A DNA stretch of 13,750 nucleotides from a virus. The stretch lies in UHGV virus genome UHGV-0180054. One strand, written 5' to 3'. Position numbers and translations under genes: made by a program. Each line of letters starts with the position of its first letter. Within the stretch, counting starts at the first letter, position 1. Below the pieces are notes generated by a model that saw nothing but the letters and a program-made list of their open reading frames with translations, was not told where the DNA came from and ran no database searches. This document shows, in pieces, positions 4,596-12,208 of the stretch.

Positions 4596-4768
4596 TGTCA
4601 GGAGTCCTGAATAGTGATTAGAGGAGTCACATGTCGGCATCAGTTTCCCGACGATGCGCATCCTCCGCCATCAGTCCCGGATGGCTTATCACTGACACAA
4701 CAGCACCTTAGCGAATCGCGGGGCGCGACTCAGTATCCTTGCCGTGTATTCATCACGGCGAGGTATTC
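4596..4768. promoter_or_regulatory. Divergent intergenic region between O (minus) and P (plus); expected site of the two Ogr-dependent late promoters
   Basis: 173-bp non-coding gap between divergently oriented operons; in P2 this gap holds the late promoters for the P-Q and O-N-M-L operons. Contains inverted repeats GTCGG-N10-CCGAC (4633-4652) and TCGCG-GGG-CGCGA (4716-4728). I could not find an exact TGT-N12-ACA Ogr motif. Confidence 0.45.
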
Positions 4769-6541
4769 ATGACCATCACCACAGACACCACTCTTTTACA
4801 CGACCCGCGTCGTCAGGCGGCGCTGCTGTACTGGCAGGGATTTTCCGTGCCGCAGATTGCCGCCATGTTGCAGATGAAACGCCCGACGGTGCAGAGCTGG
4901 AAACAGCGCGACGGCTGGGACAGTGTTGCCCCCATCAGCCGTGTCGAAATGAGCCTGGAAGCGCGGCTGACCCAGCTCATCATCAAACCGCAGAAAACCG
5001 GCGGTGACTTCAAGGAAATTGACCTGCTCGGACGCCAGATTGAACGACTGGCACGGGTAAACCGTTACAGTCAGACCGGCAACGAGGCAGACCTTAATCC
5101 GAACGTCGCTAACCGCAACAAAGGCGGTCGTCGCAAACCGAAAAAGAATTTTTTCAGTGACGAGGCCATCGAAAAGCTGGAGCAGATTTTCTTTGAGCAG
5201 TCTTTCGAATATCAGTTGCACTGGTATCGCGCCGGGCTTGAGCACCGCATCCGCGATATCCTGAAATCCCGCCAGATTGGCGCGACATTTTATTTTTCCC
5301 GCGAGGCGCTGCTGCGCGCCCTGAAAACCGGTCATAACCAGATTTTTCTGTCGGCCAGTAAAACGCAGGCGTATGTGTTCCGCGAATACATCATCGCCTT
5401 TGCCCGGCTGGTTTACGTTGACCTGACCGGTGACCCGATTGTCCTGGGCAATAACGGCGCAAAACTGATTTTTCTCGGCACCAACTCCAACACCGCACAG
5501 AGCCATAACGGTGACCTGTACGTCGACGAGATTTTCTGGATCCCGAATTTTCAGGTACTGCGTAAGGTGGCATCAGGTATGGCCTCACAGAGTCACCTGC
5601 GCTCGACCTATTTCTCCACCCCGTCCACACTGGCGCACGACGCCTACCCGTTCTGGTCGGGTGAACTGTTTAACCGGGGACGCGCCAGCGCCGCCGAACG
5701 TGTGGAAATCGACGTCAGTCATAACGCCCTTGCCGGTGGGCTTCTCTGTGCGGACGGCCAGTGGCGGCAGATTGTCACCATTGAGGACGCCCTGAAAGGC
5801 GGCTGCACGCTGTTCGACATTGAGCAGCTCAAACGTGAAAACAGCGCCGACGATTTTAAAAACCTGTTCATGTGTGAATTTGTTGACGACAAGGCGTCGG
5901 TGTTCCCGTTCGAGGAGCTGCAACGCTGCATGGTCGACACGCTGGAAGAATGGGAAGACTATGCGCCGTTTGCCGCCAATCCGTTCGGCTCCCGCCCGGT
6001 ATGGATTGGTTACGACCCGTCACACCGTGGCGACAGCGCCGGATGCGTGGTGCTGGCACCGCCGGTGGTGGCCGGAGGTAAATTCAGAATACTTGAGCGT
6101 CACCAGTGGAAAGGCATGGACTTTGCCACCCAGGCTGAATCCATCCGCGAACTCACCGAAAAATACAACGTCGAATACATCGGAATTGATGCCACCGGCC
6201 TCGGTGTCGGCGTGTTCCAGCTCGTGCGCTCGTTCTATCCCGCCGCGCGCGATATCCGCTACACGCCGGAAATGAAAACCGCAATGGTGCTCAAGGCAAA
6301 AGACGTTATCCGCCGTGGCTGTCTGGAATATGACGTCAGCGCCACCGACATCACCAGCTCGTTTATGGCTATCCGCAAGACCATGACCAGCAGCGGACGC
6401 AGCGCCACCTATGAGGCCAGTCGCAGCGAGGAAGCCAGCCACGCCGACCTCGCCTGGGCGACCATGCACGCCCTGTTAAATGAGCCACTCACCGCCGGTA
6501 TCAGCACCCCGCTGACATCCACCATTCTGGAGTTTTACTGA
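4769..6541 (+). CDS. P: Terminase large subunit, ATPase (P2 gpP-like), 590 aa
   Basis: ORF 4739..6541 plus begins with TTG in the track; the first ATG at 4769 (MTITTDTTLLHDPRRQAALLYWQG...) follows GAGG and gives 590 aa, the P2 P length. Stop overlaps Q start (TGATG). Confidence 0.9.
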   Translation: MTITTDTTLLHDPRRQAALLYWQGFSVPQIAAMLQMKRPTVQSWKQRDGWDSVAPISRVEMSLEARLTQLIIKPQKTGGDFKEIDLLGRQIERLARVNRYSQTGNEADLNPNVANRNKGGRRKPKKNFFSDEAIEKLEQIFFEQSFEYQLHWYRAGLEHRIRDILKSRQIGATFYFSREALLRALKTGHNQIFLSASKTQAYVFREYIIAFARLVYVDLTGDPIVLGNNGAKLIFLGTNSNTAQSHNGDLYVDEIFWIPNFQVLRKVASGMASQSHLRSTYFSTPSTLAHDAYPFWSGELFNRGRASAAERVEIDVSHNALAGGLLCADGQWRQIVTIEDALKGGCTLFDIEQLKRENSADDFKNLFMCEFVDDKASVFPFEELQRCMVDTLEEWEDYAPFAANPFGSRPVWIGYDPSHRGDSAGCVVLAPPVVAGGKFRILERHQWKGMDFATQAESIRELTEKYNVEYIGIDATGLGVGVFQLVRSFYPAARDIRYTPEMKTAMVLKAKDVIRRGCLEYDVSATDITSSFMAIRKTMTSSGRSATYEASRSEEASHADLAWATMHALLNEPLTAGISTPLTSTILEFY

Positions 6542-7611
6542 TGAGCAAGAAAAAACGGAAAACACCGCAACCTGCGGCAAAAACAATGACCGCCAGCGCC
6601 CCGAAAATGGAGGCGTTCTCCTTTGGTGAGCCGGTGCCGGTCCTCGACCGCCGTGACATTCTGGATTACGTCGAGTGCATCAGTAACGGCAGATGGTATG
6701 AGCCGCCGCTCAGCTTTACCGGTCTGGCAAAAAGCCTGCGTGCTGCCGTGCATCACAGCTCACCGATTTACGTCAAACGCAATATTCTGGCCTCGACATT
6801 TATCCCGCATCCGTGGCTTTCCCAGCAGGATTTCAGCCGCTTTGTGCTGGATTTTCTGGTGTTCGGTAATGCGTTTCTGGAAAAGCGTTACAGCACTACC
6901 GGTAAGGTCATCAGACTGGAAACCTCACCGGCAAAATATACCCGCCGTGGCGTGGAGGAGGATGTTTACTGGTGGGTGCCATCCTTCAACGAGCCGACGC
7001 CTTTCGCGCCCGGCTCCGTGTTTCACCTGCTGGAGCCGGATATTAATCAGGAGCTGTACGGCCTGCCGGAATATCTCAGCGCCCTTAATTCTGCCTGGCT
7101 GAATGAATCAGCCACGCTGTTCCGCCGCAAGTATTACGAAAACGGCGCTCATGCCGGATACATCATGTACGTCACTGATGCCGTGCAGGATCGCAACGAT
7201 ATCGAAATGCTTCGCGAAAACATGGTGAAGTCAAAAGGCCGCAATAACTTTAAAAATCTGTTTCTCTATGCCCCGCAAGGGAAAGCCGACGGCATTAAAA
7301 TTATCCCGCTCAGTGAAGTGGCAACGAAGGACGATTTTTTTAATATCAAAAAAGCCAGCGCCGCTGACCTGCTGGACGCGCACCGCATCCCCTTTCAGTT
7401 GATGGGCGGCAAGCCGGAGAACGTCGGGTCGCTGGGTGATATTGAGAAAGTGGCAAAGGTCTTTGTCCGCAATGAGCTTATCCCGTTACAGGACAGGATC
7501 CGCGAGATAAACGGCTGGCTCGGTCAGGACGCTGAAAAAATAAAATCAGCACCCCCGCCAGCGCGCAGTGCTTTCCCCGCCTCGCCCGCCCGCTTCATGG
7601 GTCGGTTTTAA
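6541..7611 (+). CDS. Q: Portal protein (P2 gpQ-like), 356 aa as read; 3-prime boundary uncertain
   Basis: ORF 6541..7611 plus, ATG start coupled to P stop; sequence recognised as P2 portal Q. The last ~25 residues (SAPPPARSAFPASPARFMGRF) are low-complexity and overlap the cos 19-mer, so the true C-terminus may differ (P2 Q is 344 aa as far as I recall). Confidence 0.8.
   Translation: MSKKKRKTPQPAAKTMTASAPKMEAFSFGEPVPVLDRRDILDYVECISNGRWYEPPLSFTGLAKSLRAAVHHSSPIYVKRNILASTFIPHPWLSQQDFSRFVLDFLVFGNAFLEKRYSTTGKVIRLETSPAKYTRRGVEEDVYWWVPSFNEPTPFAPGSVFHLLEPDINQELYGLPEYLSALNSAWLNESATLFRRKYYENGAHAGYIMYVTDAVQDRNDIEMLRENMVKSKGRNNFKNLFLYAPQGKADGIKIIPLSEVATKDDFFNIKKASAADLLDAHRIPFQLMGGKPENVGSLGDIEKVAKVFVRNELIPLQDRIREINGWLGQDAEKIKSAPPPARSAFPASPARFMGRF
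7568..7586. other. cos cohesive-end sequence (P2/186/P4-type 19-mer)
   Basis: Plus strand reads GTGCTTTCCCCGCCTCGCC, the exact reverse complement of GGCGAGGCGGGGAAAGCAC, which I recall as the 19-nt cohesive end shared by P2, 186 and P4. Late operon (P, Q) and early operon (A side) both point toward it, as on the circular P2 map. Confidence 0.55.
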
Positions 7612-7714
7612 TGCAGGTGCACGAACACACTGGAGACGCACCAGTACTGGCGGTGGTCACGTAGATCCGCCCCTTAAAAGCCATGCAGAATAATGCAACT
7701 ATTGCGGGCGTCGG

Positions 7715-8134
7715 CTAATCATCTCCTAAAGGTGGAATTTTGATGCCACTAATTAGCAGTACTTTCCGATATGCCTCAAAAATAATGTTGTGTGTTTTTT
7801 GTAAATCATCGAGCATTTTTTGCCGTCCTGCTGGGGTATCTTTGGCAAAATTATGAGCGCGAAAAAAATCATGTGCCAAGTAGTTTCTGGCTTTAAGAGC
7901 ATCTGACACATACTCCAGTGTATCAGCATCCTCCACCATCCTAGATTTCAGTGCGTAATTCAATTTACCCAGCGTGTATTTATCCATTTCTAAAAACTGT
8001 TTTTTCAGCGACTGTATATCTTTCCCCTGACTCATATCATACTCAGTGATAACATTTATCAACTCAGTCTCCAGTAATTGAGCTGCTTCCGAAGCATAAC
8101 CAAATTTCCAATAAACCGTATCAAGCGTCACCAT
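7715..8134 (-). CDS. Hypothetical 139-aa protein, hotspot cargo (candidate partner/immunity/regulator of the upstream HNH protein)
   Basis: ORF 7715..8134 minus, ATG at 8134-8132, stop TAG at 7717-7715; AT-rich codon usage unlike the phage core; mildly acidic (about 21 D/E vs 18 K/R), no motif I recognise; 91 bp downstream of the 443-aa gene on the same strand. Confidence 0.6.
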   Translation of the reverse strand: MVTLDTVYWKFGYASEAAQLLETELINVITEYDMSQGKDIQSLKKQFLEMDKYTLGKLNYALKSRMVEDADTLEYVSDALKARNYLAHDFFRAHNFAKDTPAGRQKMLDDLQKTHNIIFEAYRKVLLISGIKIPPLGDD

Positions 8135-8225
8135 ATAATCTATTCCCCATATAATAAATCACACCCCAAATTAAATCATAATACATAATTAAATCTAACG
8201 CCTCGCTGCACCAGAAGAAGTCATG

Positions 8226-9557
8226 TTAACGCTTATCATGGAACTTTTTCCATTTTGTCATCAACTTTCCAGCATCAAGTTCTACATGATGCGGTTGTAG
8301 AGTTTTTCCCTCAAACATAGTTTTGTGGATACAATTAATAGAGAAATGAACCGTTAAGTCTTCTGGATTAATCCCCATTAATCCTTTATCAAACATTCGG
8401 TGTAAACTTACTTCAAGTAACAGGCCATTAGATGTGTTATTATTTGCCGATTCTGTTATTGCTTCAATATGTGCGGCTTCCAATATCCCCTCTGGCAATG
8501 GATAGCCAGTAATAGCACATCTGCCATTGAAGTTATCCCAAACACGGCGTTTGAAATCAGCTTGATCTCCAGCATGACGGACTTTGTGAGTAACCTCGAC
8601 TGTTCGTCCTGTAGCACAGGTATCGTTTGCGGCCTTGAAAGGATTAGTTAGACTTTCATTAATGGCTATATCCGTTCCATCCATGATAAGAGATATTTCA
8701 TTATTGGGTTCGTGTGATGTTAATGGACTTATGTACTGATTGCTTAAAAAAGTCATACTAGATTCTTCATCAGTCGCGAGTTTCCACGCTTCTGATTGTG
8801 TCATTGTTAGCAATGCCGTTTGATAAACTTGCTTATTAAAATAACGTTTATCTTTCTTGTCACTCCCCATATTAATAGTACTAGATTTAATCGGAAGTGT
8901 TTTATCACCAATTAGTAGATCACGTATTTCTACAGTCTCTTCTAAGGTATCAATAGGAGCTACTATAGGGTTAGTAAACGGGTTATCTACATGATCTACG
9001 TGGTTGTGTCGTAAATGCCACTCTATAGCACTATCTTTTATATGTATCTCGCAGACAGGGCATACAATAAGCCCCATAGATGTTACAGGTAGCTTTTTGC
9101 CACCGATTAAGCGTAATGTATTTGCATTCTGGTTATGTACTTTCTTTTGGTTCTGTGTCAGTACACTACGCTTAGCCTCTAAACGGGTCGGAATCTTAGC
9201 AAGATTAAGCGATTTACGGCTCTCTTGTCTCTCAAGATCATAGATCCGAATCCCTGCTTCAGTTTTGATTTTTGTCCACATAGAGATAGAACTAAGGAAT
9301 TTATGTCCATGTACTTTTTCATAATCAGCATAAACTTGCAAAGTAGCAGTGGAACTATCTAATCCTTTTTTACGGAGTGCTGTATATTGCTGAAAAAGAT
9401 TAATAGCATGAGCTGTAATAGAGCGCCTATTCTCTATAATTTGCGCTTTTTTTGCTGCTTGTTCTGCTTGCAATGCTTTTTGTTCAGGGGTAAGCGACTT
9501 CTTTTTGGTTTTCTTGGTTCTTTTCTTACTCAAAATTTTCTTACTGTTATTGTTCAT
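8226..9557 (-). CDS. HNH (HNH_2-type) nuclease-domain protein with lysine-rich N-terminus and central Cys/His cluster, 443 aa, hotspot cargo
   Basis: ORF 8226..9557 minus, ATG start with AAAGG upstream. C-terminal residues ~341-410 read GRCAITGYPLPEGILEAAHIEAITESANNNTSNGLLLEVSLHRMFDKGLMGINPEDLTVHFSINCI, matching the C-x-x-TG ... AHI ... NGL ... H-x-x-FD signature of HNH_2 (PF13391-like) endonucleases. Residues 5-40 are a K-rich basic tract; residues 166-189 CPVCEIHIKDSAIEWHLRHNHVDH resemble a zinc-binding motif. About 33-38% GC. Confidence 0.75.
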   Translation of the reverse strand: MNNNSKKILSKKRTKKTKKKSLTPEQKALQAEQAAKKAQIIENRRSITAHAINLFQQYTALRKKGLDSSTATLQVYADYEKVHGHKFLSSISMWTKIKTEAGIRIYDLERQESRKSLNLAKIPTRLEAKRSVLTQNQKKVHNQNANTLRLIGGKKLPVTSMGLIVCPVCEIHIKDSAIEWHLRHNHVDHVDNPFTNPIVAPIDTLEETVEIRDLLIGDKTLPIKSSTINMGSDKKDKRYFNKQVYQTALLTMTQSEAWKLATDEESSMTFLSNQYISPLTSHEPNNEISLIMDGTDIAINESLTNPFKAANDTCATGRTVEVTHKVRHAGDQADFKRRVWDNFNGRCAITGYPLPEGILEAAHIEAITESANNNTSNGLLLEVSLHRMFDKGLMGINPEDLTVHFSINCIHKTMFEGKTLQPHHVELDAGKLMTKWKKFHDKR

Positions 9558-9666
9558 TTTGCAAGCCTTTAATCTAATTCATGGAAAGGGGCATTCACTT
9601 GCCCTGTATCCAGTAAACTGACATAACACGATATAAGCAAGCTCCGTAATTCTTTCATGTTAATCA
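9558..9666 (-). promoter_or_regulatory. Intergenic region between A stop and the 443-aa cargo gene; candidate terminator/promoter for the cargo cassette
   Basis: 109-bp gap; weak hairpin (stem around 9588-9592 / 9601-9605) followed on the minus strand by TTTCC; weak sigma70-like hexamers (TTGCTT-17nt-TTTACT on the minus strand). Assignment is speculative. Confidence 0.25.
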
Positions 9667-11943
9667 TCAATGGTCCATTGTGAATCCCGCCCCCTCATAA
9701 GCGACCGGATACGTGAACTTTTTCCCGTCATAATTTACGGTTGCCCCACGCGCCAGCGCCTCAAGCTCCCATCGCTGCGGCCTGATACCGTTCTGAGCAA
9801 GGTCAACGCGGATACGGGTAATTTGCATTCGTTCCGACCGGGTCATTCTGGCCGATGGCGCTATTTCATGCGGTTTTAACGGGCTTCCGTTTCTTTGCTG
9901 ACGATTTGGTGTTCTCATGTCGTGTTTTAATGCGCCCCTGAGCGCCCTCACGACCTCCGGGTCATTCCATTCGATAACACCGTCATCTACCAGATTAAGC
10001 ACTGCTGCGGCGTGTTCAGAAGGTGTGGGAGCCGGTAACGAAGTATCACCACCGGTGAGCTTTCCACAGTTATTGACAGGACTCCGAGGCGCGGCGATGC
10101 CGCTTTTTAAAGTCAAAGGCTCAACGACCGGAACTTTCGGCACAATGCGCCAGTCCGTCGTTCTGGTGATATGAATATGACGCGCGCCGAGATGCGGCGC
10201 GTAAATGCCGACCACTCTCTCGACTTCTTCCTCGTACTCGTTAACGTCATCCGACGGGCTACGGGCGACCCTGACAGTCTGACAATCGCGCGGGACATTT
10301 GCCCCGCCCTGCGCGCTGATATACAACGCAAAATCACCACTGTCTGCAGCGGCGCGTGCAGCCTCGACGCGCTCGTCAAACTCATCAGCAATGCTGACGC
10401 CGCGAGGCAATTTGCGTAGTTCACGGTAAGCCCCCATTGTCGGCAGACCAACCGTTTTAAATTGCGGGATGCGCCACGTTGACGCCCATGCGGTAACAGC
10501 CGCGGCAGTATCTTTCAGCGGTCTGCCGGTATCATTATCGAGCTGACCATCCAGTGCATAGCCGTCGATATTTTTTGAGATGTATTTCGCGATATACCCC
10601 GCAGCACCGCCCCGGTTAAGATGTTTTGCCTGAAAACGGTTTCGCGCGGCTCCTCTTTCGTCTCCATCCTCTTTGAGCGCGTAGCGACGCATGATTTCAA
10701 TAATCTGGTTACGCTGGCGTGGATTACAAAAAAGCATCATATGCCAGTGCGGCGTTCCGTCGTGGTGTGGCTCGACGACACGCAAACCGTAGACCTGTAA
10801 ATCATTATCCTTGAATGCCGTGCGCATCAGGCTCCAGATACGGCAGAGATAACGCTGCGCATCCTTTGGATTAAATGCCTCATCGTTCCAGCCGTGATTA
10901 AGCTGCACGGTTTTACTTTCGCCTTTTCCGACCTGACGTGTCGGGTGATACTTTGACGGCGCGGTCAGCGTGATAAACATCCCCACGTCACCCTCTGCAG
11001 CGGCGTAACGCTCAATACCGGCAATGGTGTTCATCAGCTCCATCCGGCGAATTTCAGGATTAGAAATACTGCCCATCACCTTACTGATAAGGTCGATGCG
11101 CTCGCCGGTTTCCCTGTTCTCAAGGTCACACGATTTAAGAAACTCCAGATTTGCCTGGCGGCGCGCACGCACATCACGAATGGCATGTTTACTGGCATAA
11201 GGAGAACGGTCTTTATTGACCTCCCCGACAGCAATCAGTAACGCCTCATGCCAGCGCATACGCTGGCCTTTAAGCTGATGAGTCCACCACTCATCGTTAA
11301 ACAGGCGGGCAATGGCAGAATATGCCTGCCTCGTGGTCATCTGTCCTTTACGGTATTTTTTCCAGTAGAGAGGGGAAATATTGAAAGCACGTGCAGCGCC
11401 AGCAACATGACCATAGAGGTGAGCCTGCGCCTCATCCGTAAACAGCGATTCTTTCTCGCCATGCGCATCCACCCAGGCATCGCAGAGTTCCTCATACATC
11501 ATGAAAAGCTGTGATGAGATACGGGCGGCAAACTTTTTCAGCTCCTTGTCATTCATCCCCGGCAGGCGCGCATAATGGTCACGCTCTGCCAGAAACAGCA
11601 ACGACGCGTCGGTGTTCATTTCATGGCGCTGATTCACGCGCTCAATGCGCGGCCATAAACGACGCTGAAAAGTGGATGTGAGGAAATAAAACCCGTGCAC
11701 CGGGCTTTTATTGCGCCGGATGTAGTCATAGCGTGAAGTAAACAGCGAGCGCAAAAAGTAAGGCAGGCGGTTAATCGTGGATAAAACACCTTGCACCTGA
11801 CGCATCTCGTCACGTGTAAGGGGTCTTTCGCGCCCGACGGCCTCGCGTGGCGCGTTCCATGCATAAGCACCGGTAAACGTCTTACCGGTGCCTGCGGCAA
11901 ATGCTGACGGAGGGACAAAATGCCCGGAGGCTTTAACGGCCAT
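9667..11943 (-). CDS. A: Replication initiation protein, rolling-circle endonuclease (P2 gpA-like), ~758 aa
   Basis: ORF 9667..11985 minus begins with TTG in the track; first ATG at 11943 (MAVKASGHFVPPSAFAAGTGK...) matches the P2 A N-terminus as I recall it. Contains HUH-type motif (PHWHMMLF) and paired-tyrosine motif (AAGYIAKYISK) typical of rolling-circle initiators. Last gene of the early operon. Confidence 0.9.
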   Translation of the reverse strand: MAVKASGHFVPPSAFAAGTGKTFTGAYAWNAPREAVGRERPLTRDEMRQVQGVLSTINRLPYFLRSLFTSRYDYIRRNKSPVHGFYFLTSTFQRRLWPRIERVNQRHEMNTDASLLFLAERDHYARLPGMNDKELKKFAARISSQLFMMYEELCDAWVDAHGEKESLFTDEAQAHLYGHVAGAARAFNISPLYWKKYRKGQMTTRQAYSAIARLFNDEWWTHQLKGQRMRWHEALLIAVGEVNKDRSPYASKHAIRDVRARRQANLEFLKSCDLENRETGERIDLISKVMGSISNPEIRRMELMNTIAGIERYAAAEGDVGMFITLTAPSKYHPTRQVGKGESKTVQLNHGWNDEAFNPKDAQRYLCRIWSLMRTAFKDNDLQVYGLRVVEPHHDGTPHWHMMLFCNPRQRNQIIEIMRRYALKEDGDERGAARNRFQAKHLNRGGAAGYIAKYISKNIDGYALDGQLDNDTGRPLKDTAAAVTAWASTWRIPQFKTVGLPTMGAYRELRKLPRGVSIADEFDERVEAARAAADSGDFALYISAQGGANVPRDCQTVRVARSPSDDVNEYEEEVERVVGIYAPHLGARHIHITRTTDWRIVPKVPVVEPLTLKSGIAAPRSPVNNCGKLTGGDTSLPAPTPSEHAAAVLNLVDDGVIEWNDPEVVRALRGALKHDMRTPNRQQRNGSPLKPHEIAPSARMTRSERMQITRIRVDLAQNGIRPQRWELEALARGATVNYDGKKFTYPVAYEGAGFTMDH

Positions 11944-12208
11944 GTGAGCCAAAAGCCTCTGAACAACGCTTGCTGAGTTGCTCAACCTGCGCGTTTAAAT
12001 CAGCAAAAGACTTTGCGCTTCCGGTCAGAATATCGTGATGCATCATGCCGGAAACGAGCTGGCTTAATTTCGGGTAATAACCAACCACCGCCAGCCATTC
12101 CTGACCGGCGTTTTTACCACTTTCAGCTCTCTTTTTCTCGTGGAGAATAAACTGAAAGCTGTCACTGGTAACGACATAACGTTCGCCAATTTCAATACGA
12201 ATACTCAT
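11933..12208 (-). CDS. Small early-operon protein (P2 orf83 position), 91 aa
   Basis: ORF 11933..12208 minus, ATG start with GGAG 8 nt upstream; overlaps A start by ~11 nt and is coupled to the upstream ORF by ATGA; function unknown. Confidence 0.6.
   Translation of the reverse strand: MSIRIEIGERYVVTSDSFQFILHEKKRAESGKNAGQEWLAVVGYYPKLSQLVSGMMHHDILTGSAKSFADLNAQVEQLSKRCSEAFGSHGR

Follow-up and report, generated by a model that had tools for sequence, protein, structure and literature searches.

A C2H2 zinc finger joined to an HNH_2 nuclease in a mobile cassette of P2-like prophages: a candidate restriction-type endonuclease

The 13,750-nt viral sequence UHGV-0180054, hereafter the window, is a portion of a P2-like prophage and carries on its minus strand an open reading frame (ORF, 8226-9557, stop codon 8226-8228) for a 443-aa protein. 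We favor, with moderate confidence, the view that this protein is a stand-alone, methyltransferase-independent DNA endonuclease of the restriction type (Type IV-like) that serves as anti-phage or anti-plasmid cargo of mobile elements. A DNA-reading role for the region upstream of the nuclease domain is supported by a conserved finger, by purifying selection and by the fusion of finger, three-helix unit and HNH_2 domain in 17 of 19 relatives. A role in defence is supported by the placement of the gene in a low-GC island of the gpQ-gpA hotspot of P2-like prophages and by TIR, GajA/GajB-like and NACHT genes that neighbor its homologues elsewhere. An original prediction, made from the letters alone, had described in this ORF a basic tract, a Cys/His cluster and an HNH_2 motif, and the ORF and each of these sub-features are found at the nucleotides that it gave.

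Results

Modules of the 443-aa protein

The protein is 99% identical to WP_023304084-type proteins, which are annotated 'HNH endonuclease'. Its ORF divides into the parts listed below, for which confidence values come from an AlphaFold2 model computed from 64 sequences (mean predicted local distance difference test score (pLDDT) 76.5, predicted template modelling score (pTM) 0.36).

9489..9557, minus strand: Lys/Arg-rich tail, residues 1-23, predicted disordered (pLDDT 44-57 in the first two 10-residue blocks)
9129..9488, minus strand: four long alpha-helices, residues 24-143 (24-63, 68-87, 91-116 and 125-143), pLDDT >90 for most
8991..9116, minus strand: C2H2 zinc-finger module with flanking beta-strands, residues 148-189, ligands C166, C169, H181 and H186
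8935..8953, minus strand: junction of an in-frame 183-nt (61-codon) deletion, where the two blastn pieces to full-length genes overlap
8913..8942, minus strand: helix left from the deleted domain, residues 206-215, DTLEETVEIRDLLIG, from alignment A1
8730..8849, minus strand: conserved three-helix unit, residues 237-276, YFNKQVYQTALLTMTQSEAWKLATDEE..., pLDDT about 95, kept across subfamilies
8580..8729, minus strand: disordered inter-domain linker, residues 277-326, pLDDT 31-48, variable in sequence and length
8229..8579, minus strand: HNH_2 nuclease domain, residues 327-443, with lead-in helix 329-342, beta1 360-363, beta2 378-381, alpha-helix 383-390 and a C-terminal extension
8469-8471, 8427-8429 and 8400-8402, minus strand: codons of the catalytic triad H363, N377 and H386, invariant in 64/64 relatives

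The motifs CAITG, LEAAHI, SNGLLL and LHRMFDKG lie at residues 347-392, and Pfam HNH_2 (PF13391) matches residues 347-397 over profile positions 1-66 of 66 with 42.2 bits against a cut-off of 21 (E=7.4e-11). The catalytic His at the end of beta1, the Asn before beta2 and the metal-binding His in the alpha-helix are all present, and H363, N377 and H386, together with C347, are invariant in all 64 aligned relatives. Profile searches and fold searches of the AlphaFold model, in which the protein matches solved HNH nucleases, uphold the HNH_2 signature and the His/Asn/His spacing first noticed in the sequence. Profile and model thus agree that the C-terminal region is an intact HNH (beta-beta-alpha-Me) domain, for which nuclease activity is predicted.

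Residues 166-189 read CPVCEIHIKDSAIEWHLRHNHVDH, with the spacing C-x2-C-x11-H-x4-H. The x11 between the second Cys and the first His leaves this finger one residue short of the canonical C-x2-4-C-x12-H-x3-5-H; distant members of the family are canonical (e.g. CIICRKKFGTVQKLHRHYKKKH) and follow the pattern C-x2-C-x3-F-x5-L-x2-H-x4-H. C166, C169, H181 and H186 are retained in 51-54 of the 64 aligned relatives (alignment A2), most of the others being gapped there, and alignments A1 and A4 show no substitution at any of the four. The modelled finger consists of strands 163-165 and 172-174 followed by helix 175-185. When a profile of the N-terminal region alone was searched against 1.84 billion representative proteins, it matched long proteins in 5-13 repeated stretches; one such match that was checked (P0149) is a classical C2H2 array, and poly-finger proteins are matched by the family profile at about E=1e-9. 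Among relatives, zf-C2H2_jaz, zf-met, zf-C2H2_4 and zf-C2H2_6 are all matched above their curated cut-offs, with P0133 scoring 28.7 bits for zf-C2H2_jaz against a cut-off of 22.6, P0136 passing zf-C2H2_6 and zf-met, and the two-fingered P0141 also passing curated Pfam C2H2 thresholds. Among solved C2H2 fingers, the whole-family profile matches ZBTB17 (E=0.0026) and then ZNF524, 1MEY and Zfp57, with E=0.003-0.05 across the solved fingers, and the window protein by itself gives only a sub-threshold OrsD match (E=0.034; E=0.012 with the N-terminal fragment). From its conserved ligands and these profile matches, the Cys/His cluster, earlier described as close to a C2H2-like zinc site, is very probably a genuine C2H2 zinc finger with predicted zinc binding.

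The basic tract, noted earlier at residues ~5-40, covers residues 6-39, and the first 45 residues hold 15 Lys or Arg against 3 Asp or Glu; in the 64-sequence alignment the tail is strongly basic only within the close subfamily of the window protein. The helices of residues 24-143 form a variable N-terminal module that differs between subfamilies and has a ratio of nonsynonymous to synonymous substitution rates (dN/dS) of about 0.3, and fold searches with these helices returned only generic helical-bundle matches. The original prediction could name no fold in the ~300 N-terminal residues. The region resolves into four long helices, finger, the helix left from the deleted domain, three-helix unit and linker; as drawn in the model, the disordered tail covers residues 1-22, the finger's sheet and helix 148-185, the three-helix unit 242-276 and the HNH domain 329-443.

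Computed against three homologues, dN/dS is 0.22-0.30 for the whole gene. It is lowest in the three-helix unit (0.07-0.18) and the HNH domain (0.10-0.15), is 0.19-0.38 in the finger and is highest, at 0.35-0.8, across tail, 191-236 segment and linker (linker 0.35-0.58). This pattern matches the modelled module borders, and the finger and the three-helix unit are held by strong purifying selection.

A domain lost from the window copy

Most close homologues are ~500 aa long and have 61 additional residues between the finger and the three-helix unit. In full-length genes the segment is flanked by an imperfect 16-nt direct repeat, TTGATACTGTCGAAGA / TTGATACTTTAGAAGA, and the window junction lies inside this repeat, where it reads TTGATACCTTAGAAGA. 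A model of the full insert (pLDDT 70) has strands at 17-23, 32-36 and 57-61 and a helix at 64-74; an AP2-type DNA-binding identity was guessed for the lost domain and was not confirmed by searches. Relative P0007, 99.6% identical to the full-length P0009, is also without the domain, but its deletion has other end points and its identity to the window protein is only 77%. The loss has therefore happened on two independent occasions, each time in frame. In more distant subfamilies the domain was never present, and the window deletion leaves every conserved motif intact. The deletion restores the architecture of the wider family, so that the window copy probably remains active, perhaps with altered specificity.

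P0007 itself is encoded in a lambdoid prophage (L009) between the lysis cassette and antiterminator Q, where it adjoins a gene for a 335-aa CAP12-PCTIR TIR-domain protein (7655-8662); this is probably another defence cargo position.

Distribution and conserved core of the family

Among 5,426 complete E. coli genomes, 12 contain the exact island of the window, the isolates coming from pigs, humans and chickens, and the 90% cluster of the window allele has 57 member sequences. A first search placed the family in 84 clusters, and the N-terminal profile retrieved 25 representatives at E<1e-10. The named members are all from Enterobacterales and are annotated merely as 'HNH endonuclease'; PHROGs lists the family in its category of unknown function. 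Among relatives found with the N-terminal profile, 17 of 19 end in HNH_2 with the finger and three-helix module fused to it, and in the smallest of them (282-301 aa) nothing but the finger, the three-helix unit and the HNH domain is present. On this sequence comparison, what the family conserves as its core is the finger/three-helix/HNH trio, and what varies is the set of N-terminal helices.

A tblastn search matched 1,473 plasmid records (1,041 conjugative), mostly at the level of the HNH domain as judged from an evenly spaced sample (n=30) in which 4, of IncN type, align past that domain. Sequenced phage genomes gave HNH-domain-level matches only, with no full-length relative found. A 489-aa paralogue with the same finger/three-helix/HNH core is encoded on the IncN plasmid NZ_CP058883.1 (L017, 5254-6723), near repA and flanked by a recombinase-family (resolvase-like) gene and a NYN-domain gene. 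On a Klebsiella IncFIB plasmid (L018), which has aac(6')-Ib-cr and blaOXA-1 as well, IS26 copies flank the same segment. Further contexts in the wider family are a hotspot between the conjugation operons of an integrative and conjugative element (ICE) and an smpB-linked island with NACHT and toxin-antitoxin genes.

An autonomous cassette in unrelated elements

The gene moves as a sharply bounded unit, for which blastn breakpoints give one feature.

8214..9646, minus strand: autonomous HNH cassette of ~1.43 kb, consisting of the ORF with ~90 nt upstream and ~10 nt past the stop codon

In a Citrobacter island (L003-L006), a Pectobacterium element (L007/L008) and a lambdoid prophage (L009/L010), homology to the window begins at 8214/8218 and stops at 9582-9646. 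With an E. coli P2-like prophage of different cargo (L001), homology conversely ends at 8211 and resumes at 9654. Because blastn homology stops at these points, the ORF with ~90 nt upstream is the unit of transfer. The flanks are unrelated across the four contexts: the lambdoid copy adjoins a TIR-domain gene, the copy in the Pectobacterium integrative element has integrases and a relaxase nearby, and the Citrobacter island holds a GajA/GajB-like pair and a resolvase close by.

The window and the homologue contexts examined contain no methyltransferase, immunity gene or constant neighbor, and the cassette has no Rfam match at E<=1, no repeat array or family and no independent small ORF. A hidden RNA or small-ORF partner was considered and rejected, as the cassette holds no Rfam RNA, repeat family or independent ORF.

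In the Citrobacter island (L003), the full-length homologue stands between a 389-aa gene without a Pfam match (4658-5827) and the resolvase. The GajA-like (AAA_15/AAA_21/OLD-TOPRIM) and GajB-like (UvrD) pair of that locus comes next, at 8702-11866, and the region looks like a composite defence island.

The prophage locus

Annotation of the window was taken from near-identical E. coli loci and identifies the following genes around the cassette.

Within the window: P2-like lysis, capsid, scaffold and early genes
4739-6541: terminase
6541-7611: portal gene gpQ
7715-8134, minus strand: 139-aa gene, an independent module beside the cohesive end (cos) in P2-like hotspots
9667-11985: replication gene gpA

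The GC content is 52-60% across the phage genes and 37-39% at ~7650-9650. This low-GC island sits between gpQ/cos and gpA, the position of old/tin in P2, and holds two minus-strand genes, the 443-aa ORF (8226-9557) and the 139-aa ORF (7715-8134). The gpQ-gpA region is an anti-phage hotspot whose 18,150 loci show 1,650 gene arrangements (Rousset et al. 2022, PMC9122126), and it hosts old, tin and validated defence systems (PMC9122126). The pair 'HNH_2 + hypothetical' (WP_023304084 + WP_023281582) appears only in the raw locus table (Table S5) of Rousset et al. 2022 and is outside the systems they assayed. The gene is thus already catalogued as a locus.

In the E. coli LS4 P2-like prophage (L001, 6823-9322) the cargo is instead a DUF2971 protein with 158-aa and 380-aa hypotheticals. 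It swaps for the HNH cassette exactly between the window-equivalent positions 8211 and 9654, and it is in Table S5 of Rousset et al. and apparently uncharacterized.

Compared with two related P2-like prophages, 177 nt are absent from the window at about 7522-7530. The deletion takes the last ~15 codons and the stop of gpQ together with its terminator hairpin, so that the portal ORF (6541-7611; 356 aa compared with 344-348 aa) now reads through the 19-nt GGCGAGGCGGGGAAAGCAC at 7568-7586, which we take to be the P2 cohesive end. The window prophage may be defective in packaging.

The adjacent 139-aa gene

By the homology breakpoints the 139-aa gene lies outside the cassette and is a separate P2 module. 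We considered it as an immunity protein or partner of the nuclease and rejected this role, as it travels with the P2 flank and is absent beside HNH homologues outside P2. It occurs with unrelated cargo in E. coli (DUF2971 and two hypotheticals) and in Salmonella (DinI and two hypotheticals). Its family has an invariant R83-N84-x-L86-x-H88, a HEPN-type Rx4-6H pattern, and an invariant E16-AAQLLE-x-EL; searched singly, members match four HEPN-clan Pfam models below threshold (best E=0.0022), and a weak PD-Lambda-3_B match comes from PADLOC. Judging by these motifs, the 139-aa gene may encode a minimal HEPN RNase and act in defence independently of the nuclease. Distant 153-aa relatives on a metagenome contig (L023, 4084-9113) are found among small DUF4145, DUF6988 and DUF5677 genes, near a resolvase and a capsid-gene fragment, a run that may group small helical proteins of defence or abortive infection.

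Discussion

Proposed function

The earlier reading of the protein as a DNA-targeting effector is borne out as far as the HNH fold, the finger and the defence-hotspot setting are concerned, and comparison with the nearest characterized nuclease domains suggests that modified or phage-specific DNA, as also proposed there, is a fitting target. By analogy with VcaM4I and TagI, the C-terminal HNH_2 domain would act as the DNA-cleaving effector, with low intrinsic sequence specificity, and would be dimeric and restrained by the upstream modules. The N-terminal tail, the long helices, the C2H2 finger and the three-helix unit would together make up the reader, which would tether the protein to DNA and license cleavage through the ~50-residue flexible linker. 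Self DNA would be spared if the reader needs a feature absent from the host chromosome, the likeliest being a DNA modification distinct from the Dam/Dcm marks, for example the hypermodified bases found in certain phages. Dam and Dcm methylation is present in most E. coli strains. Because a Dcm-type mark would be self DNA in most E. coli, the target, if a modification, should differ from a PcaRCII-like C5mCWGG, in which 5mC is 5-methylcytosine.

Several points weigh against this assignment. Pfam, NCBIfam, PADLOC and fold searches found none of the known modification readers (PUA/SRA/EVE/YTH/ASCH, NEco, SBD or DpnI-type winged helix), and because the N-terminal region matches no known reader, it is the kinship of the effector domain that carries the case for modification dependence. 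HNH_2 occurs in Type II enzymes and in CBASS Cap5 too. PADLOC-DB v2.0 returned no named system, only the generic HNH models PDLC04132 and PDLC03546, which cover the nuclease domain alone, and our literature search found no functional study of the window protein or of any family member. At a mean pLDDT of 76.5 and a pTM of 0.36, single domains of the model are reliable but their mutual arrangement is not. Finally, the 61-residue deletion could have inactivated the enzyme or altered its regulation, and the copies of the window allele, at ~99% identity, are too uniform to gauge selection after the deletion. Assignment to a named defence system was rejected; NCBIfam PT-DNA_restrict reaches 33 bits against a cut-off of 180, in the nuclease domain only.

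A bolder form of the restriction reading, which we put forward only tentatively, is that the finger and the three-helix unit constitute a new reader for restriction-type immunity that senses a feature beyond the classical methyl marks. C2H2 zinc fingers are uncommon in bacteria, and a eukaryote-style C2H2 finger as the DNA-reading part is not described for modification-dependent HNH restriction enzymes. Fingers of the zf-met/zf-C2H2_jaz type favor A-form helices. The clearest Pfam finger matches in relatives are to zf-met and zf-C2H2_jaz, the latter described by Pfam as double-stranded-RNA-binding. Candidate features would then be hypermodified phage bases, RNA:DNA hybrids or the structures of replication intermediates, and the family would form a Type IV-like defence class on Enterobacterales prophages, ICEs and IncN-type plasmids.

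Alternative explanations

An unlikely alternative is that the protein is a trigger-activated, abortive-infection effector, whose N-terminal modules restrain a non-specific HNH DNase until a phage protein or an infection-specific nucleic acid frees it, so that all cell DNA, the host chromosome included, is degraded and the cell dies before the phage completes its cycle. The stand-alone cargo setting is that of many single-gene abortive-infection systems, no recognizable modification reader is present, and CBASS Cap5, one of the structural matches, uses HNH_2 as a regulated suicide effector. The N-terminal helices, moreover, vary between subfamilies as would a surface that co-evolves with phage proteins. 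The family core, however, is made not of this variable part but of DNA-binding-type modules, the C2H2 finger and the three-helix unit. Pfam and PADLOC scans found no known sensor or signalling domain (SAVED, STAND, TIR etc.), and the closest nuclease homologues are direct restriction enzymes.

It is less probable that the gene is a selfish, free-standing endonuclease of the homing type (as I-TevI and I-HmuI) that spreads by cutting cassette-free alleles, with its presence in hotspots reflecting its own mobility and no benefit to the host. A sharply bounded cassette without its own recombinase in four unrelated elements would fit such a life style, as would a nuclease joined through a long linker to small DNA-binding modules. 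The beta3-alpha topology of the lost domain is compatible with AP2, a fold typical of homing endonucleases (PMC5714182), the AP2 identity itself not being confirmed. The protein does not show the make-up of the homing type, an HNH_3 or zf-His_Me_endon nuclease with NUMOD, AP2 or helix-turn-helix modules. The original prediction had named a homing endonuclease inside an intron or intein as an outcome that would overturn it; the gene is in neither, its known sites being an anti-phage hotspot already on record and further cargo positions of mobile elements. Insertion at a homing site, in an intron or in an intein was likewise rejected, the gene being intergenic and in generic cargo hotspots with unrelated flanks.

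We also consider it improbable that the ORF is a decaying or inactive remnant, disabled by the 61-codon deletion and persisting because the event is recent. The window copy is without a domain held by most close relatives, its copies are ~99% identical, as expected if the event was recent, and the same prophage has a second lesion, the 177-nt deletion of the portal 3' end and terminator. The deletion is nonetheless in frame and leaves the conserved motifs whole, distant subfamilies are naturally without the domain, and P0007 lost it independently and again in frame. The spread of the allele over 12 complete genomes of pig, human and chicken E. coli isolates, the 57 sequences of its 90% cluster and a dN/dS of 0.22-0.30 against homologues also speak against decay.

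A function for the carrier element, either in cos cleavage and packaging (as for HNH proteins beside some cos-phage terminases) or in plasmid maintenance or transfer, is very improbable: the gene is close to the P2 cos site (7568-7586) and a paralogue lies in the IncN backbone region near repA, but only 12 of 5,426 E. coli genomes have the gene although P2-like prophages are common (18,150 hotspot loci, PMC9122126), other P2-like phages hold unrelated cargo at the same position, the same cassette is also found in non-cos contexts, and the protein is far larger than the small terminase-linked HNH proteins and of another Pfam family, so that a terminase-helper role was rejected on grounds of distribution and family.

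Implications

If active, the restriction-type nuclease proposed here would be a compact, single-gene immunity system of ~1.4 kb with its promoter, in which a C2H2 finger replaces the PUA, SRA or winged-helix readers, and would bring a new reader class to Type IV-like restriction. With relatives on P2 and lambdoid prophages, ICEs and IncN plasmids, the family could affect phage susceptibility, which matters for phage therapy, and plasmid flow among Enterobacterales; some IncN-type records hold resistance genes too, such as aac(6')-Ib-cr and blaOXA-1. The two losses of one domain via the gene's own direct repeat amount to a natural experiment on specificity change in such enzymes.

Comparison with known systems

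At its locus the gene resembles old/tin of P2 and the systems validated by Rousset and colleagues, which are short phage-excluding cargo in the same place between gpA and gpQ beside cos (PMC9122126), but the proteins of old, tin and the validated hotspot systems are unrelated to the window protein. With eukaryotic-type C2H2 fingers the window finger shares the ligand pattern and the predicted beta-beta-alpha fold. In contrast to eukaryotic C2H2 arrays, the family has a single finger (two in P0141), fused to a nuclease and carried on enterobacterial mobile elements.

The nearest characterized nuclease domains are those of VcaM4I, TagI, EcoKMcrA and PcaRCII, all modification-dependent enzymes, and the family profile matches VcaM4I at E=6e-9. 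HNH dimers of the VcaM4I type cut so as to give single-nucleotide 3' overhangs. TagI (SRA-HNH, PDB 6ghs) and VcaM4I (EVE-HNH, PDB 6yex) have nuclease domains homologous to that of the window protein, but their readers are base-flipping domains of the PUA superfamily (SRA and EVE), in place of which the window protein has a C2H2 finger and helical modules. In VcaM4I the HNH domains dimerize, the isolated HNH is toxic and non-specific, and auto-inhibition by a linker helix lasts until modified DNA is bound by the reader (PMC7897488). EcoKMcrA (PDB 6ghc) is less similar than TagI or VcaM4I, and its reader has the NEco fold, unlike the window protein.

PcaRCII (R.PcaRCII, locus F9W95_06460) of Pectobacterium carotovorum is a 5mC-dependent HNH restriction endonuclease (Birkholz et al. 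2022, PMC8989522). Its knock-outs show restriction of 5mC-modified phage and plasmids, no methyltransferase accompanies it, and it is described as an N-terminal three-helix bundle with a VcaM4I/TagI-like HNH (PMC8989522). For comparison, a PcaRCII orthologue was retrieved from a related Pectobacterium genome by means of the published promoter sequence. Its nuclease domain is homologous over the full length to that of the window protein (26% identity, BLASTP E=1e-8; hhalign probability 98.5%, E=2e-15). Both are single polypeptides with no methyltransferase nearby, in which an N-terminal helical module and a linker precede a C-terminal HNH_2 domain. At 263 aa, however, PcaRCII is without the zinc finger, the long helical region and the basic tail, and it is a gene of the Pectobacterium core genome, not of a mobile cassette. 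Homology between the three-helix unit and the N-terminal bundle of PcaRCII was rejected (hhalign probability 0.06%). By sequence, then, the two-domain Type IV enzymes share with the window protein the effector and the methyltransferase-less, single-gene layout. Because no recognized reader was found in it, we describe the window protein as one that would work like TagI, VcaM4I and PcaRCII and do not file it among them.

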